Of a stretch of DNA of 64,000 nucleotides, positions 7,622 to 26,639 are shown piece by piece. The notes beneath the pieces were generated by a model that searched no databases, was not told where the DNA came from, and was given only the letters and a program-made list of their open reading frames with translations. The position numbers and the translations under genes are program-made. This DNA is from Chryseobacterium aquaticum (GTDB taxonomy: Bacteria > Bacteroidota > Bacteroidia > Flavobacteriales > Weeksellaceae): the NCBI RefSeq assembly GCF_036677985.1, contig NZ_JAZDST010000012.1:86971-150970 (forward strand). Direction: 5' to 3'. The stretch's first letter is position 1, and every line of letters starts with the position of its first letter.

Positions 7622-8392
7622 ATGAAAAAATTATTTTATATTACGACATTATTTGTTTTCATTTTTGGCAAGAGCCAGATTACAAATATCAATGACGGAG
7701 AATCTTTATCACTTAGAATTCATTACGGCTTTTTAACGGCAGGATCTGCCAATCTTACTGCAAAAAAAACAAATTACAAAGGCGTTCCTCATCTTTATGT
7801 GAAAGGAACAGGACAAACATCTGGTGCAGTGAAGGCTTTTTTTAAAGTTGAAGACTTATATGAAAGTTACATTGATATGCAGACAGAACTTCCCAGTTAC
7901 TATGTAAGAAATGTAAAAGAAGGAAGCTATACACAACATTTGCAGACCACTTTCAACCATGACAACAATACTTTAATTTTAACCGATAAAAAGAATCCTG
8001 CAAATGGTTCTAAAACTATAAAATCTGTAAAAGGTGTTCAGGATATGCTTTCATGCTTCTATTTTTTGAGAAGTAAAACTCCTGCAGAACTAAGAACAGG
8101 TACAGTTTTTAACATGAATGTCTGGATTGATGACGAAATGTTTCCGTTTCAGTTAAAAGTGGTGGGAACAGAAAATTTAAAAACAAAATTCGGGACGATT
8201 AATGCTTTGAAGATCATTCCTTCTGTGAAAAGCGGAAGAGTTTTTAAAGAAAAAGAAGGAGTTACGATGTGGGTTTCTAATGATGCGAATCATATTCCAT
8301 TGTTACTGAAAGCAGAATTAGCAGTAGGATCTTTAAAAGCAAGTATTGACAGCTATAAAAACGTAAAGTATCCTTTGAAGTTTATTAAATAA
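7622..8392 (+). CDS. DUF3108-type secreted protein
   Basis: Signal peptide; GESLSLRIHYGFLTAG, FFKVEDLYESY and QDMLSCFY resemble DUF3108 proteins. Confidence 0.75.
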   Translation: MKKLFYITTLFVFIFGKSQITNINDGESLSLRIHYGFLTAGSANLTAKKTNYKGVPHLYVKGTGQTSGAVKAFFKVEDLYESYIDMQTELPSYYVRNVKEGSYTQHLQTTFNHDNNTLILTDKKNPANGSKTIKSVKGVQDMLSCFYFLRSKTPAELRTGTVFNMNVWIDDEMFPFQLKVVGTENLKTKFGTINALKIIPSVKSGRVFKEKEGVTMWVSNDANHIPLLLKAELAVGSLKASIDSYKNVKYPLKFIK

Positions 8393-8414
8393 ATTAATCA
8401 CAAAAATTGAAAAT

Positions 8415-8450
8415 AATAAGAGCGATTTCTTGACAGAAATCGCTCTTATT
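8415..8450. terminator. Strong hairpin terminator after the DUF3108 gene, probably bidirectional
   Basis: Perfect 16-bp stem AATAAGAGCGATTTCT-TGAC-AGAAATCGCTCTTATT. Confidence 0.8.
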
Positions 8451-8532
8451 AAATATTAAGGTTAATTATAGGATGTTTATTTTAGGTAATCATGAATATT
8501 AATTAAAAATTCAGATCTTTTTAAATTTTCCT

Positions 8533-8767
8533 GTATCGGTCACAGAGCTTGAAAGCTCTGCGACTATACTAAGGGTTTTAACAATTGTGTTTTTTAGAAT
8601 CGTTTCCGAATTTTTTTTCTGAGTTTAAGTATAATTTACAGAGCCTTTCGACTCTGTAAAAATACTTTGGCTTTTTATCATTTGTGTTTATACCTCCCCA
8701 AACCAAAAAATATTGGTTCCGATACTAATCTATATTTTTGTAAAGATGATTAGTGACATTTATCTTG
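8533..8767 (-). ncRNA. Putative structured small RNA, copy 1
   Basis: Downstream of a TATTTTTG element; four hairpins fold better on the minus strand; ends approximate. Confidence 0.65.
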
Positions 8768-8770
8768 AGA

Positions 8771-8850
8771 CAAAAATACGAACATCACAATATACAAATC
8801 CAGCAAAGCTTATCGATAAATGTCGATTTCATTGTAGATATTTATCTACA
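8771..8850 (-). promoter_or_regulatory. Promoter plus two 18-bp palindromic boxes, copy 1
   Basis: -7 element TATTTTTG (8771-8778), TTTG 16 nt upstream; boxes TATCGATAAATGTCGATT (8811-8828) and perfect 8-2-8 inverted repeat TGTAGATATTTATCTACA (8833-8850). Confidence 0.75.
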
Positions 8851-8996
8851 AAAATTACACTTAATGGGTTTTAAAATACATCATTTAATAAAAACATTAC
8901 AAAAGCAATTTCCCGAAAGAAATCACTCTTGTAAATATTAATTTAGTTGTTGAATGTTTTTAATTGATAAAAACCAGATATTCTGATTTTCTTAAT

Positions 8997-9215
8997 TATC
9001 GCGAAACCTGTAGATTCTGTGATATAAAAAAGGTTGTAATGATTGTAGCTTTAGAATCGTTTTCGTTTTTTCTCAAGGTTAAGTATAATTTACAGAGCCT
9101 TTCGACTCTGCAAAAAATACTTGTGTTTTTTCATTTGTGTTTTTACCTCCCCAACCAAAAATTCTTGGTTACGATACCAATCTATTTTGAACGATGATTA
9201 GTAACATTTTTCTTG
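8997..9215 (-). ncRNA. Putative structured small RNA, copy 2 (distal hairpin diverged)
   Basis: Same P1/P2/motif/P3 architecture as copy 1; ends approximate. Confidence 0.6.
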
Positions 9216-9218
9216 AGA

Positions 9219-9298
9219 CAAAAGTAGTAACATCATGATATACAAAGCCAATAAATCATGTCGATAGATATCGAACCAGCTGTAGATATTTATCGACA
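9219..9298 (-). promoter_or_regulatory. Promoter plus two 18-bp palindromic boxes, copy 2
   Basis: TACTTTTG (9219-9226); boxes TGTCGATAGATATCGAAC (9259-9276) and TGTAGATATTTATCGACA (9281-9298). Confidence 0.75.
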
Positions 9299-9432
9299 AA
9301 ATGATTTAAAAAACTTTAAAATTTAAATGAAATATTCGCAGTAGCCATTTTTGGACAGAACCGCTTTTCTAAATATTGAAATTTTTTATGGAGTTTTCTG
9401 ATATGATAGAAATTCAAAAAATTGAATTCCTT

Positions 9433-9655
9433 GTATCAATCACAGAGCAAGAAAGCTCTGCGATTATACTAAAGGTTGTAATAATTGTGTTTTTAGAATC
9501 ATTTCCGAGTTTTCTTAAATATAGTTTACAGAGCCTTTCGACTCCGCAAACAATATTTTAGATTTTTTCATCATTTGTATTTTTACCTCCCAAGTTAAAA
9601 ATCTTGGTTTGTCACTAATCTATCTTTGGAACAATGATTAGTGATATTTTTCTTG
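9433..9655 (-). ncRNA. Putative structured small RNA, copy 3
   Basis: Same architecture as copy 1, with a compensatory G-C to A-U change in the distal hairpin; ends approximate. Confidence 0.65.
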
Positions 9656-9658
9656 AGA

Positions 9659-9738
9659 CAAAAGTAGTAACATATTGATATACAAACACAGTAAATCATA
9701 TCGATAAATGTCGAACGAGCTATAGATACTTATCTACA
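9659..9738 (-). promoter_or_regulatory. Promoter plus two 18-bp palindromic boxes, copy 3
   Basis: TACTTTTG (9659-9666); boxes TATCGATAAATGTCGAAC (9699-9716) and TATAGATACTTATCTACA (9721-9738). Confidence 0.75.
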
Positions 9739-9793
9739 ACTTATGATAAAGATGATTAAAAATAAAATTTACAAGAGAATCTTTAAGTGATAA

Positions 9794-10438
9794 TTACTGA
9801 TGGTTTTTCACCAATTCAACAAGTTCTACAATATTATCAATCTTTAATTTGTCAAATATCCGCTTTTTAATTGTACTTACTGTATTTTGTTTGAGATCCA
9901 GAAGATTTGCAATTTCGAGGTTTCCGTGACCTTTGCTGTACAGTTCTGCAATTTGTAATTCTCTTTCGGTAAGACCAAACAATGGATTGATAACTTTACG
10001 ATCTCGTAGAGAATTCATCAACAAAGCCTGTGTAGCGGGAGAAATATATTCTCCATCTTCTTTCATTTTTATAATTGCTTTCTTGATTTCTTCTTCCTCA
10101 CTTAGCTTGCTTAAAAAACCATTGGCACCTGCATTGATGTATTTAAGAGCATGCATATTTTCGTCTATTCCTGTAAATACCAGAATTTTTGTCTCAGGAT
10201 TTATTTTTCTTATTTCAGGTATTAAACTCAAACTATTACCGTCTGGAAAATGAGCATCAATAATCACTATATCTATGGGATTTGCTTTTATCAGCTCCAA
10301 TGTCTTTTGTAAATTCGGAGCCTGAAGAATTACAGTGTCAAACGGCAGATCTTCCAACAGGAAAGCGATTCCCTGTCGTATTAAGCTATGATCATCTGCA
10401 AGAAGAAAATTTATTGATGTATTCTCAATATAACTCAT
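9794..10438 (-). CDS. NarL/FixJ (LuxR-HTH) family response regulator
   Basis: LLADDH, IIDAHFPDG (phospho-Asp), VFTG, GFLSK receiver residues; LTERELQI...EIANLLDLKQNTVST HTH. Confidence 0.93.
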   Translation of the reverse strand: MSYIENTSINFLLADDHSLIRQGIAFLLEDLPFDTVILQAPNLQKTLELIKANPIDIVIIDAHFPDGNSLSLIPEIRKINPETKILVFTGIDENMHALKYINAGANGFLSKLSEEEEIKKAIIKMKEDGEYISPATQALLMNSLRDRKVINPLFGLTERELQIAELYSKGHGNLEIANLLDLKQNTVSTIKKRIFDKLKIDNIVELVELVKNHQ

Positions 10439-12165
10439 TTATTCAACTTTAAATTAAGAGAAAAAGATACGGTAGTTCCTTCATTTAACTCGCTATCGAC
10501 AGAAATATTACCTGAATATAATTCGACAAGTTCTTTACACAAACTCAATCCTAGACCCGCACCAAGATTTTCTACCTCATCGGAAATAATTCCCTGATAA
10601 TAAGGTTCAAATATTTTTTCTAAATCTGACTTTGAAATTCCTACGCCAGAATCCGTAATCTGCGTTTTTAGAACAACAGTATTTTCATCTACAGGCTCTG
10701 CAGAAGTCTTTACCGTAATTTCACCATTCTCTGTAAATTTATTGGCATTTCCGAGAATATTCATAAAAAGCTGATTGATTTTTGTATTGTCTGAATATAC
10801 AACAATATTCGGATCAATGTTTTTATCAATAATAAATTTATTATTTCTTGTCTGAATATAAGGCTCTATAGAAGTTAAGATAGATTCTACTTCGTTATTC
10901 AGATTAAAACTCACAGGAATCAGTTTATTTTCAACCTGTTGATTTTTAGTATATTCCAAAATCTGATTTGCCTGCATCAAAAGTGTATTATTAGTAAAGC
11001 TTATAGATTTTAAATACTCTTTAATGCTTTCGTCTGTTGTTTTCTTATTAATCCTATTGATGAAAATACCAATAATTTTCAAAGGAGACCTCAATTCGTG
11101 GCTCAACATTCCCAGAATTCTGTTTTTGAAATTCAGATTCTCTTTAATCTGAAGATTAGCAGCATTTAATCTTCTCTCATAAATAAATGCAATTCTTGTA
11201 AAATACATGATTAATATAGAAACGATAAACATCAAAATCATTAATCCTATGACCAGATCTTTTCTGATTTTATTACTTTTAGAATTTTGCGCAGCATACT
11301 CTTTTTCAAGATCCGTTTTAGAATCTTTTACCGCAGATTCATACACTCTCATCAGTTCGTTACTGTAAACCAATAATGAATTGAATGTAGAAAAGAGCTT
11401 CACACTCTCGTTTTTCCCATTATCTTTATTCTTGTTTACATTTACACGTATTTTTTGAACTTCTTTTGTGTAATGCTTATTGATGGAGTTTACAATACTG
11501 TCAACTTCACCTTTTACAGTAGGAATATCTAATATTTTACCGCCTTTTACCGTTACTACCACACTGTCTTTCCTTACGTTTTCCTTTCCTGATATTGCAT
11601 CACCGATACGACCAAACAAACCCTTCTTTTTTACGGTATCAGAATATGTTTTGGTTTGTACCTCAAATTTATCGAAATTATAATTGTAGTTGTACGTTTT
11701 AAGTTTCGGCAGAGCTTCGGGTATTTTTAGATTTGCATTTGTAGAAAACTGATAGGTAGAATCTGTAAGCAATTTTAGATTTTTTGTTTCGCCTACATTC
11801 TTTTTGTGAGATACTAAAATAGTTTTTACTCTCGGATTTTGAAATTTAAAATTATTAATGCTGTCAAGATTTTTTGTCAGTTTATTAACAGAAGTAAAAT
11901 AAGATTTTAAATACTGATCGTCTCGGCTGGTAACGTATTCCTGAAAATAATTTTGTGCATTATTAAGCTCTTTTCGGGAATCATCCGTAAGGTTCTCCAA
12001 TTGGTGAACTTCATTTAATTGTTTTTCAATGAAGTTTAAATTCTTATTATTAACGAATTCATTGTAAAAAAAACCTGCTATTATACATTGTATTAAAAGA
12101 ATGCAAATAATAAAAGAATATTGTACAATTTTTCTCAATCTAAAACTCATCGACTTTTTAACCAT
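10435..12165 (-). CDS. Membrane sensor histidine kinase (HisKA + HATPase_c)
   Basis: Two TM segments flanking a periplasmic domain; SHELRSPL H-box, NILGNANKFT, DSGVGI, GAGLGLSLC; 4-nt overlap with the response regulator. Confidence 0.93.
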   Translation of the reverse strand: MVKKSMSFRLRKIVQYSFIICILLIQCIIAGFFYNEFVNNKNLNFIEKQLNEVHQLENLTDDSRKELNNAQNYFQEYVTSRDDQYLKSYFTSVNKLTKNLDSINNFKFQNPRVKTILVSHKKNVGETKNLKLLTDSTYQFSTNANLKIPEALPKLKTYNYNYNFDKFEVQTKTYSDTVKKKGLFGRIGDAISGKENVRKDSVVVTVKGGKILDIPTVKGEVDSIVNSINKHYTKEVQKIRVNVNKNKDNGKNESVKLFSTFNSLLVYSNELMRVYESAVKDSKTDLEKEYAAQNSKSNKIRKDLVIGLMILMFIVSILIMYFTRIAFIYERRLNAANLQIKENLNFKNRILGMLSHELRSPLKIIGIFINRINKKTTDESIKEYLKSISFTNNTLLMQANQILEYTKNQQVENKLIPVSFNLNNEVESILTSIEPYIQTRNNKFIIDKNIDPNIVVYSDNTKINQLFMNILGNANKFTENGEITVKTSAEPVDENTVVLKTQITDSGVGISKSDLEKIFEPYYQGIISDEVENLGAGLGLSLCKELVELYSGNISVDSELNEGTTVSFSLNLKLNK

Positions 12166-17295: not shown

Positions 17296-18960
17296 ATGAT
17301 CAAATCATTACTGCTCAGTTTTTTCACATTTTTATCTGTTTTACATCTTGCACAGACTTATGAAATTCAATACACAAGTTCTTATAATGGCAAAATACAG
17401 CCCAATCAAAACCCTGTCATTGTTTGGGTGAATGAAACTGAAAATTATATTTTAAATTCAAAAATAAAAGATCAGAAAAACGAATATCCCTTTGAGATCA
17501 GTAAAATAGAAAAACCTTCCAACACAATCATTTCATACGGATTTTTAAAATATGGGGAAATTATTTCAACTTCTGACGCCCAATCAATTGGAAAACAAAG
17601 TTTTGAATTTACAGATAAAACAAAGAAAATTTTAGGATATAATTGTAAACAGGCGGTTACAAAAATCAATTCAAACACCATTGAAATTTGGTATACCAAT
17701 GATCTTAAACTGAAAGGTGGACCATCTAGCCTCGGACAAAACTTAGGTTTGGTTTTAGAAATCGAGCGAAACGGAAATTCCGCAACTACCGCCACTTCTC
17801 TGAAAAAGATCAAAAAATCCGGTATTGAAAATATTATCAACAAGCCGACAACGACGACGGATCTTTTAAGCTACAAAGATTTGCTTTGGAAAAGCAGATT
17901 TACCAGTTTAAAAGTTTTTGAAAACGAAATCATCAATTTTTCTGATCAATCAAAGTCAGACGAAAATATCAAGCGATTTGCCAACGGAACTATTATTCTC
18001 AAAAAAATAAAGTTCCCGGAAATTTCACAAGGTGAAAATATTTTTATTGAATTAAAACAACAATCCAACGGCGATGCTTATGACAGAACAGGAACTGTAT
18101 TTTTTATTCCTGAAAACAAATCTCAATCTTTCTTTGACGGACTGGAAAAAGGAGTAAAAACTCTTCCTGCATACGAAAACGGGAACGGTAAACAATATTT
18201 TGGTGTTATTTCTACTGAAAATTACCAACCAACTGTAGAACTGATGAGATTTTTTACAGCATTCGGGATTAATAAATTCAATAATCTGGAACTGAAAGAT
18301 AAAACCTGGCAAATAGTGAGTCCGTTTCGTCAAGACGTTACAGAACTGAAACCTTCTCTTTCGGGAAAAGAAATCTGGGTAGGAACATTTATCGGGAATT
18401 ACGACAAAGGAGGTCATAAAGTAACTTTAGATATTACAATTCACAAAAGCGATCAAATTGTACATACCAACAAAAAGGTAATCCCACTTTTTAATACTAC
18501 AAATATTATGGAAATGGCTGGACAGGATTATGCAACAATGTTTGATAACGATAAAGGAATTCTGGTAGAATTTAATCTCGAAAAAGATCTTAAAAATGCA
18601 CAGTTAAGATATATTACAACCGGACATGGAGGTTGGGAAAACGGCGACGAATTTATCCCGAAAGAAAATTATATTTTTTTAGACGAGAAAAAGATCTTCT
18701 CTTTTACGCCTTGGAGAACAGATTGTGGTTCTTATCGACTTTACAATCCTGCTTCAGGAAATTTTCCGGACGGACTTTCTTCTTCAGATCTTAGTCGTTC
18801 AAATTGGTGTCCGGGAACAATTACCAATCCCAATTATATACAATTGGGTGATTTAAAAGCTGGAAAACATACTATTCAGGTGAAAATTCCTCAGGGAAAA
18901 CCGGAAGGAACAAGTTTCAGCGCATGGAATATTTCCGGTGTTTTATTAGGTTCAGAATAA
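17296..18960 (+). CDS. Peptide-N-glycosidase F family protein with N-terminal GLPGLI-like domain (PNGase F-II type)
   Basis: Signal peptide; KKILGYNCKQA...WYT..GP GLPGLI-like segment; DAYDRTG, TTGHGGW..GDEF and RSNWCPG motifs. Confidence 0.82.
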   Translation: MIKSLLLSFFTFLSVLHLAQTYEIQYTSSYNGKIQPNQNPVIVWVNETENYILNSKIKDQKNEYPFEISKIEKPSNTIISYGFLKYGEIISTSDAQSIGKQSFEFTDKTKKILGYNCKQAVTKINSNTIEIWYTNDLKLKGGPSSLGQNLGLVLEIERNGNSATTATSLKKIKKSGIENIINKPTTTTDLLSYKDLLWKSRFTSLKVFENEIINFSDQSKSDENIKRFANGTIILKKIKFPEISQGENIFIELKQQSNGDAYDRTGTVFFIPENKSQSFFDGLEKGVKTLPAYENGNGKQYFGVISTENYQPTVELMRFFTAFGINKFNNLELKDKTWQIVSPFRQDVTELKPSLSGKEIWVGTFIGNYDKGGHKVTLDITIHKSDQIVHTNKKVIPLFNTTNIMEMAGQDYATMFDNDKGILVEFNLEKDLKNAQLRYITTGHGGWENGDEFIPKENYIFLDEKKIFSFTPWRTDCGSYRLYNPASGNFPDGLSSSDLSRSNWCPGTITNPNYIQLGDLKAGKHTIQVKIPQGKPEGTSFSAWNISGVLLGSE

Positions 18961-19028
18961 AACAAAACCTCCTTGCAATATTATTACAAGGAGGTAAAAA
19001 CACAAATGATGAAAAAAAATTATTTCGA
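18961..19028 (-). ncRNA. Candidate U-rich small RNA
   Basis: Minus-strand terminator with no minus-strand gene nearby; TTTTTTTTCATCATTTGTGTTTTT precedes it; only an imperfect promoter (TTCCTTTG, 19033-19040). Confidence 0.4.
18964..18995 (-). terminator. Terminator hairpin with a U tract only on the minus strand
   Basis: ACCTCCTTG/CAAGGAGGT stem; followed by TTTTGTTTT on the minus strand but AAAAACAC on the plus strand. Confidence 0.7.
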
Positions 19029-19280
19029 GCAACAAAGGAATGAAAAATATTTGAATTATTAATTACCATAGATCAAGATTTATAAACTTTTTTTGATTTT
19101 GTAGGTTTTATGCACATAATTCACTTGTTAAAAATATCAATCTGAAACACGACAATCGCGGTAATTAAAATTAAATTTTAATTTATTTAAATCAATTTAA
19201 TGAAAAATATGAACTTTAAGTAAATTTTTGTTTTAAAATTTATCTATATTTATTATTTTTGCTTTTAAATAAAAAATAGA

Positions 19281-26241: not shown

Positions 26242-26639
26242 TGGCAGTAACAGTAAAAGCAAGTTTAGGCAAAACGAAATATTACACAGAAGTAATTGCC
26301 GGAGAAAATCAACTGATTACAGATGAACCAGTCGATAAAGGCGGACAAAATAAAGGTTTTAATCCATTTGAAATCTTGGCAACTTCTTTAGCAAGCTGTA
26401 CTGCAGCAACGCTGAGAATGTATATCGACAGAAAAGAATGGGATGTAGAAAAAATAGATGTGGAGGTAGAATTGGAAAATTTTCCACTAACAAAATTGGC
26501 AGTTTTTAAAAGAAACATTAGTTTTGAAGGAGACGGTTTAAGCGAAGAGCAAATGAAAAGGCTTCATGCGATTGCAGACGCTTGTCCGGTACACAAAATT
26601 TTAACCAACGAAATAGAAATTCAAACCAAATTTTCATAA
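26241..26639 (+). CDS. OsmC family protein
   Basis: DEPVDKGG, PFEILATSLASCT, ADACPVHK; start re-set to MAVTVK at 26241 (TAATG overlap). Confidence 0.88.
   Translation: MAVTVKASLGKTKYYTEVIAGENQLITDEPVDKGGQNKGFNPFEILATSLASCTAATLRMYIDRKEWDVEKIDVEVELENFPLTKLAVFKRNISFEGDGLSEEQMKRLHAIADACPVHKILTNEIEIQTKFS

Follow-up and report, generated by a model that had tools for sequence, protein, structure and literature searches.

The 64,000-nucleotide stretch of the Chryseobacterium aquaticum genome analyzed here (the window; contig NZ_JAZDST010000012.1, positions 86,971 to 150,970, with coordinates below counted from its first letter) contains a gap between two convergent genes, encoding a DUF3108 protein and a response regulator, that is filled by three colinear copies of a unit of about 320-350 bp. 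The unit recurs with a period of 448 and 440 bp. We propose that the units are non-coding RNA genes controlled by the adjacent two-component system, and that their RNAs probably serve as sponges for a family of base-pairing small RNAs (sRNAs). Every unit opens on the minus strand with an 8-2-8 palindrome, TGTAGATAAATATCTACA (box 1). A second element, TCGAyATyTATCGA (box 2), stands 6 nt past box 1 and is followed by a Bacteroidota -7 box, TAnnTTTG. The predicted RNA layout consists of two 5' hairpins, site A, a GAAA-loop hairpin, site B and a further hairpin. Site A is GGAGGUAAAAACACAAAUGAU (core form GGAGGUAAAAACACAAAUGAUGAAAAAA) and site B is CGAUUCUAAAAACACAAUUAUUA, both predicted to be single-stranded between hairpins, while the GAAA-loop hairpin is ACAGAGUC-GAAA-GGCUCUGU inside a GUAU/AUAC outer stem. 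The features of the locus are as follows.

7622-8392, plus strand: DUF3108 gene, flanking the array
8405-8778, minus strand: unit 1, with its -7 box at 8778-8771 and a predicted start near 8764
8850-8833 and 8826-8812, minus strand: unit 1 operator, box 1 (a perfect TGTAGATAAATATCTACA) and box 2
8697-8672, 8660-8635, 8606-8580 and 8562-8541, minus strand: unit 1 site A, GNRA hairpin, site B and further hairpin
8451-8414, minus strand: unit 1 predicted terminator, a perfect hairpin of 17 bp between an A tract and a U tract
8888-9226, minus strand: unit 2, with its -7 box at 9226-9219 and a predicted start near 9212
9298-9281 and 9274-9260, minus strand: unit 2 operator, box 1 and box 2 (span 9260-9298)
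9150-9125, 9114-9089 and 9059-9037, minus strand: unit 2 site A, GNRA hairpin and site B
8934-8897, minus strand: unit 2 predicted intrinsic terminator, followed by a U-rich tail
9335-9652, minus strand: unit 3 predicted transcript, with two 5' hairpins at its front
9738-9721 and 9714-9700, minus strand: unit 3 operator, box 1 (TGTAGATAAGTATCTATA) and box 2 (TCGACATTTATCGAT)
9659-9666, minus strand: unit 3 -7 box, TACTTTTG (TAnnTTTG type), with a predicted start near 9652
9590-9563, 9551-9524, 9501-9479 and 9462-9441, minus strand: unit 3 site A, GNRA hairpin, site B and further hairpin
9794-10438, minus strand: NarL/LuxR-type response regulator (REC + GerE; Pfam), presumed activator of the three units
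10435-12165, minus strand: sensor histidine kinase of 576 amino acids (HisKA and HATPase_c; Pfam)

A preliminary description of this DNA had recognized three diverged copies of about 320 bp, offset by 448 and 440 bp, between convergent genes ending at 8392 and 9794, with colinear shared blocks, unrelated spacers and no resemblance to a known family. Each of these points was borne out. The flanking genes are as stated, and a repeat search returned three-copy families at 8612/9066/9502, 8673/9126/9566 and 8737/9185/9625, the spacings among them being 448/440, 454/436 and 453/440. The three units aligned on the minus strand (MAFFT) over about 320-350 nt, with a mean column identity of 78%; the spacers were unalignable. 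The blocks TTTACAGAGCCTTTCGACTC, TCTTGAGACAAAA, ATGATTAGT and TACCTCC each occur three times with their order kept. Other C. aquaticum strains also carry three units, and the nearest species carry one each. An Rfam search at E<=10 over 8300-9900 gave no match to a Csr/Rsm family or to Qrr (RF00378), and nothing reached the gathering score in five related loci. Permissive thresholds, applied to the gap, to the five related array loci and to four sRNA loci described below, yielded chance matches and one tRNA only.

The kinase comprises a transmembrane helix, an extracytoplasmic domain of about 270 amino acids with a weak CHASE3-like match (Pfam), a second transmembrane helix, and the HisKA and HATPase_c domains. 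Full-length orthologues of it were found in about 48 of 151 Weeksellaceae genomes, and the regulator is 100% identical to its counterpart in C. aquaticum C-174. The suspected link between the array and the two-component system was examined in 80 loci with regulator orthologues, drawn from Chryseobacterium, Epilithonimonas, Kaistella, Cloacibacterium, Soonwooa, Elizabethkingia and uncultured Weeksellaceae. The palindrome lies directly past the regulator stop codon in 79 of the 80, the exception being one rearranged locus, so that the proposed link holds across the family. Copy number does vary, with 1-6 tandem units per locus and 110 units in total over the 79 loci. The operator consensus of these units is TGTAGATAAATATCTACA-N5/6-CGATATATATCTA, and TAnnTTTG begins exactly 69-70 nt from the start of box 1 in 80 of 110, a spacing that places the boxes near -77 and -55. 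No conserved -33 element was found among the 110 units, as would be expected of promoters that depend on an activator, and NarL-family dimers use sites of the 8-2-8 inverted-repeat type. The boxes are thus the putative binding sites of the phosphorylated NarL/LuxR-type regulator, and the promoter appears to be activator-dependent. We consider it very probable that the units are regulator-dependent non-coding RNA genes.

Past the promoter, the sequences diverge between genera save for two elements, a site motif and a hairpin module. The site motif, ACACAAAUGAUGA (ACACAAATGATGA), was present with at most two mismatches in 68 of 72 full-length loci, at 1-11 copies per locus in that count. Overall it is near-universal, with 1-12 copies per locus and 199 sites in 77 loci, always on the strand of the regulator. 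In one genome (G207), seven sites stand in a row about 38 nt apart. The hairpin module, GUAUC-UUACAGAG-loop-CUCUGUAA-GAUAC, occurs in 25 of the 72 loci, and many related array RNAs consist merely of a promoter, one or two sites and a terminator. An alignment of 24 hairpin modules contains 15 pairs, nine of them with compensatory changes, and four pairs include 8, 3, 10 and 3 G-U/U-G cells, which would be A-C mismatches on the opposite strand. These wobble cells, together with sense-strand terminators, fix the transcribed strand.

The preliminary description had also called for minus-strand RNAs of about 220 nt. The strand agrees: the promoter and the U-tract terminators lie on the minus strand, and the G-U pairs fit that strand only. 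The length fits the distance to the end of the conserved block (220 nt) but not the full RNA, which would run about 320-360 nt from predicted start to terminator. Units 2 and 1 have canonical intrinsic terminators with U tracts on the minus strand; the 3' end of unit 3 is uncertain, with no clear terminator and only weak AU-rich hairpins. The hairpin at 8414-8451 is probably the terminator of unit 1 (minus strand), and it may also end the convergent DUF3108 gene (plus strand).

Candidate partners of the array RNAs were found through the site motif itself. Its exact 13-mer has four occurrences elsewhere in the genome, each inside a longer identical stretch, AAAAACACAAATGATGAAAAAAA. At three of the four, UUUUUUUUCAUCAUUUGUGUUUUU is read on the opposite strand, with a perfect hairpin and then a U tract behind it. 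These three have the appearance of small RNA genes, and their seed is antisense to an A-rich leader with AUG-AUG-AAA. One lies within the window, about 19 kb from its start (the 19-kb sRNA), and a second, which recurs throughout the family (the family-wide sRNA), lies on another contig:

18957-19026, minus strand: predicted sRNA of about 70 nt (the 19-kb sRNA), between two plus-strand genes; predicted partner of site A
complement of 19033-19040, minus strand: -7-like box of the 19-kb sRNA, whose single strand is AAAUAAUUUUUUUUCAUCAUUUGUGUUUUUA and whose seed is UUUUUUUUCAUCAUUUGUGUUUUUA
18994-18968, minus strand: perfect terminator hairpin of the 19-kb sRNA, followed by a U tract
contig C24:8964-9125, outside the window, minus strand: family-wide sRNA of about 95 nt (aligned loci L110-L139)

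From the -7-like box through the U tract, the 19-kb sRNA has the same sequence in eight Chryseobacterium species, and its flanks diverge. In several of these eight species it is situated 7-10 kb from the kinase gene. The family-wide sRNA had matches in 127 of the 151 Weeksellaceae genomes and in 44 of 49 genera. In an alignment of 30 genomes, its -7 box is TAnnTTTA(C), its 5' stem displays compensatory changes and U-G pairs, and its terminator contains 15 wobble cells and no broken pairs. A 30-nt single-stranded segment, within AAUAAAUUUUUUUUCAUCAUUUGUGUUUUUAGAAUCG, is identical in all aligned genomes, and the gene is always convergent with the same membrane-protein gene. The family-wide sRNA has no Rfam match. 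Among about 179 genomes of other Flavobacteriales families, only four weak partial matches were obtained. The exact 26-nt core of the sRNA was present in 112 metagenome contigs; these are long DNA contigs and are silent on transcripts. Every genome with a sponge-type kinase also matches the sRNA query, and the sRNA is older or more widespread than the kinase/RNA module, since full-length kinase orthologues are restricted to about a third of the family's genomes, as given above.

A third sRNA paralogue is located outside the window on contig C8 (about 292810-292900, minus strand). It has a perfect TAAATTTG -7 box, a 5' hairpin and the same seed, with a different terminator (GCCUUCUCUC...). In a further genome (G110; locus L141, C7:772400-774400), the 3' untranslated regions (UTRs) of small lipoprotein genes contain six or more tandem copies of the seed with a terminator, and in that genus the seed appears to be delivered as 3'-UTR-derived sRNAs.

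The consensus of the 199 sites, gattnTAAAAACACAAATGATGAAAaa, is the complement of the sRNA single strand. Exact sRNA complements of at least 14 nt were found on the sense strand in 47 of 72 loci, on the antisense strand in none of the 72, and in control DNA in 3 of 72; the longest in this comparison was 25 nt. Over all 199 sites, the contiguous pairing run had a median of 17 nt, an upper quartile of 23 and a maximum of 33, and sites of genome G207 are perfectly complementary over as many as 29 nt. An in-register GATTCT, which pairs with AGAAUC in the 5' arm of the sRNA terminator, was present at 56 of the 199 sites against a background of 0.8%, so that the complementarity reaches past any start-site-like core. 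In C. aquaticum, site A of unit 3 is complementary to the 19-kb sRNA at 27 of 28 nt. A genome-wide ungapped scan returned unit 3 as the best non-paralogue complement of this sRNA, with units 2 and 1 in the top five. Duplex energies were calculated for site-restricted duplexes with shuffles, which replaced full-length RNAduplex because the latter over-extended. Values are given for units 3, 2 and 1 in that order:

Site A with the 19-kb sRNA: -40.7, -33.3 and -32.7 kcal/mol (z = -11.3, -6.6 and -6.6)
Site A with the family-wide sRNA: -28.2, -19.3 and -19.6 kcal/mol
Site B with the 19-kb sRNA: -10.8, -5.6 and -11.1 kcal/mol
Site B with the family-wide sRNA: -25.2, -18.2 and -22.1 kcal/mol (z = -7.7, -4.1 and -5.4)

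The preference is therefore split, with site A favoring the 19-kb sRNA and site B the family-wide sRNA, and the cross-pairings are weaker.

The preliminary description had compared the array with the sibling-RNA logic of Gac/Rsm and Qrr. The multi-site array behind a two-component system does resemble Gac/Rsm. A search of the genome, which is 99.9% complete, for CsrA (PF02599) was negative, control genomes being positive, and Hfq (PF17209) was not found either. With both absent, the array most likely does not have a protein ligand of the Gac/Rsm kind, and the family of base-pairing sRNAs is its likelier partner. Absence of the usual protein ligand of multi-site decoys also fits the long duplexes. 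It is hypothesized that the array RNAs work by pairing with the sRNAs, that is, as sponge (decoy) RNAs, and we assign this reading a probability of roughly 0.6.

Architecture, conservation, linkage, strand-specific structure and complementarity are direct observations; from them we infer transcription, regulator binding, pairing in vivo and downstream targets in the following scheme. The kinase would sense an extracytoplasmic signal. The phosphorylated regulator would bind the two boxes and activate three independent minus-strand genes, and each RNA of about 320-360 nt would present single-stranded sites A and B between stable hairpins. These sites would pair over 17-29 nt with the seed UUUUUUUUCAUCAUUUGUGUUUUU of constitutively made sRNAs. 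The sponge-sRNA duplexes would probably undergo coupled decay, and titration of the sRNAs would relieve mRNAs that they repress at start codons.

Several points weigh against this proposal. The start sites and 3' ends are predictions, as is binding by the regulator. Pairing of the GAUUCU/GGAGG flank would need the sRNA terminator stem to be opened. Sequence identity on a single strand is by itself no proof of selection for pairing, since shared ancestry of the sites could produce it as well; that the sites are conserved across diverged genera nevertheless speaks for selection. Prediction of mRNA targets of the sRNA in the genome gave no coherent target set or functional theme. Finally, the proposal gives no role to the UUACAGAG...CUCUGUAA hairpin, a nearly invariant element to which a protein may bind, and one genus (G155, L176) keeps the hairpin module with weak complementarity to the sRNA.

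The last two points bear on an unlikely alternative in which control is reversed, the array RNAs being effectors, for example through a protein that might bind this hairpin, and the sRNAs their negative regulators. Conservation and covariation of the hairpin module across genera would suit this arrangement, as would its persistence in G155 and the wider distribution of the sRNA relative to the kinase and array RNA. An effector hairpin would, however, have to account for its presence in only 25 of 72 loci, against 68 of 72 for the complementary site, and for the many relatives reduced to promoter, one or two sites and terminator. Expansions to 7-12 sites fit titration instead.

The sites might also mimic start sites and so titrate a protein or the 30S subunit in the manner of CsrB, with the sRNA complementarity secondary. 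They do resemble A-rich Bacteroidota start regions with AUG-AUG-AAA, and a multi-site layout under a two-component system recalls CsrB/RsmY/RsmZ. We consider this improbable given that CsrA and Hfq are both absent. None of the four occurrences of the exact 13-mer, moreover, is at a real gene start, and three fall in the predicted sRNA genes. The in-register GATTCT and the GGAGG flanks match sRNA-specific terminator arms and would be needless for a mimic.

It is very improbable that the units encode peptides of 14-19 amino acids past GGAGG, either signaling peptides or type I toxins of the LDR/Sib kind. A GGAGG does stand 12 nt ahead of an ATG, and units 1 and 3 have a common C-terminal ESKGSVNY. 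In the unit alignment, however, the 14-19-codon open reading frame (ORF) behind GGAGG-N12-ATG is in another frame in copy 2, giving a different peptide. ORFs of at least 30 amino acids in the gap also lacked colinearity between the three copies, in agreement with the earlier claim that no reading frame is shared. The peptides are hydrophilic, unlike type I toxins, and site B is without an ATG. Other genera conserve 9 nt ahead of the ATG and only three codons beyond it, while ORF lengths and sequences vary. The small-peptide reading was rejected on the grounds that the frames are not conserved, and with neither a conserved hydrophobic toxin ORF nor a constant frame in unit 2, the array is not an LDR/Sib-like type I toxin-antitoxin repeat.

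A non-functional tandem duplication or a mobile or repeat element, as tandem layout and copy number varying between species might suggest, is scarcely credible, since a genome-wide unit search confined the array to one locus of the 3.89-Mb genome, plasmid and phage BLAST with the array gave no match, synteny and fixed promoter geometry are kept in 79 loci, and the hairpins carry compensatory changes. The same single locus and lack of plasmid or phage matches set it apart from dispersed repeats of the miniature inverted-repeat transposable element (MITE) or repetitive extragenic palindrome (REP) type.

The sponge proposal has functional precedents. QrrX of Vibrio cholerae, which is activated by QrrT, pairs with and inactivates Qrr1-4 (PMC9732341), and RosA of Bacillus subtilis, which is repressed by CcpA, sponges RoxS and FsrA (PMC8216469). 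In its putative function, the array would resemble both as a dedicated non-coding RNA under its own regulator that targets base-pairing sRNAs, and like QrrX, RosA and SroC it is complementary over an extended stretch to the seed of an sRNA from its own genome. Unlike QrrX and RosA, to which it has no sequence relationship, the array comes from Bacteroidota without Hfq. It also differs in having 1-12 sites per transcript and tandem arrays of 1-6 genes, in its presumed driver, a two-component system encoded directly upstream, and in its long complementarity (17-29 nt).

GacS/GacA-RsmX/Y/Z and BarA/UvrY-CsrB/C are similar in that the main output of a two-component system is a set of sibling non-coding RNAs that repeat a decoy motif and lie behind a palindromic upstream activating sequence. 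Those decoys bind CsrA/RsmA via GGA in hairpin loops, whereas the array motif is ACACAAAUGAUGA, the ligand is likely RNA and CsrA is absent. A test for GGA found a single GGAGG in each unit, located at a hairpin base instead of a loop, and none in related species. With no Rfam match and no CsrA, the array was not placed in Csr/Rsm. LuxO-Qrr1-5 likewise sets several sibling sRNAs under one response regulator. The Qrr RNAs, however, have sigma-54 promoters, Hfq dependence and mRNA targets, whereas the array has a Bacteroidota sigma-A-type -7 box and Hfq is absent. Membership in Qrr was rejected on the lack of an Rfam match, the TAnnTTTG promoter and the lack of Hfq. The conserved segment of the array is also sense to start sites and thus cannot be an antisense repressor of start sites, unlike Qrr. 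The resemblance to QrrX, RosA and Gac/Rsm would be functional only, and no family membership is claimed.

Nearer relatives of the host also produce sRNAs. Rfp18 and other sRNAs of Flavobacterium psychrophilum were found by transcriptomics in an Hfq-less lineage (PMC9723704). They differ from the array in family and genus, and neither a two-component link nor a sponge relationship is described in that study. In our literature search, neither RNA family was found described for Weeksellaceae or Flavobacteriia. We regard the array RNAs and the sRNAs, the latter with a 30-nt segment invariant among the aligned genomes of many genera, as two RNA families not previously described.

To our knowledge, Bacteroidota are without Hfq, ProQ-type hubs and CsrA, their post-transcriptional networks are little known outside Bacteroides, and a circuit like this one has not been reported from them. 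The locus offers a complete and directly testable circuit of sensor kinase, regulator, operator, sponge RNA and sRNA. The predicted mechanism joins the multi-site decoy architecture of protein sponges to an RNA ligand, and the long complementarity could explain sRNA pairing without a chaperone. The signal and the regulon are of practical interest in that opportunistic pathogens (Elizabethkingia) belong to the family, as do Chryseobacterium associated with fish and plants.

A broader and more doubtful idea is that Weeksellaceae run a Csr-like global switch from RNA only, in which the invariant sRNA is a chaperone-free general translational repressor. Its targets would be mRNAs with an A-rich leader plus AUG-(AUG)-AAA-AAA. 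Such starts are typical of Met-Lys-Lys signal-peptide genes, and the phylum hardly uses Shine-Dalgarno pairing. If this idea were true, a periplasm-sensing two-component system would lift repression via tandem multi-site sponge genes with up to 12 sites, and the switch would be a bacterial counterpart of a competing-endogenous-RNA circuit.

Further boxes and sites were noted elsewhere; those given below by contig position lie outside the window. A motif match within the kinase gene (11 loci) was dismissed as a coincidence due to the conserved peptide KKT(N/D)DE. A near-perfect regulator box (26371-26388) lies in the tssC-tssD (Hcp) gap of a Bacteroidota type VI secretion system cluster (C24:25980-26707), with a site, AAAAUUACAAAUGAUGAAAAAAACAC, in the hcp leader about 310 nt downstream. 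The link to type VI secretion was dropped, as this TssD was present in only 6 of 61 family genomes, with neither box nor site in any of the others. At C1:86544-86569, a 23-nt perfect match to the sRNA complement (KNQKNTNDEKKD) sits in frame inside a 496-amino-acid ORF adjoining a ParA-like gene. By reading of its sequence, with no family search, this ORF would be a relaxase/mobilisation gene, and the match would have arisen by chance or else mark a target on a mobile element. At C48:52306-52323 there is a perfect TGTAGATAAATATCTACA palindrome without box 2, followed 55 nt downstream by a TAACTTTG box on the minus strand. The spacing differs from that of the array promoters, and the palindrome may be a further target of the regulator.

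Other Weeksellaceae genera contain a paralogous kinase/regulator pair, with kinases 39-49% identical (L170-L175 and L177). There, the same architecture of palindrome and -7 box drives a GT2 processive glycosyltransferase gene and not an RNA. This GT2 synthase gene is absent from the C. aquaticum genome and from all 80 array loci. One genome (G155) has both the RNA-linked and the GT2-linked systems. The GT2 gene product looks PgaC/IcaA-like from a reading of its sequence, made with no family search, and the link hints at an exopolysaccharide or biofilm theme for such two-component systems.

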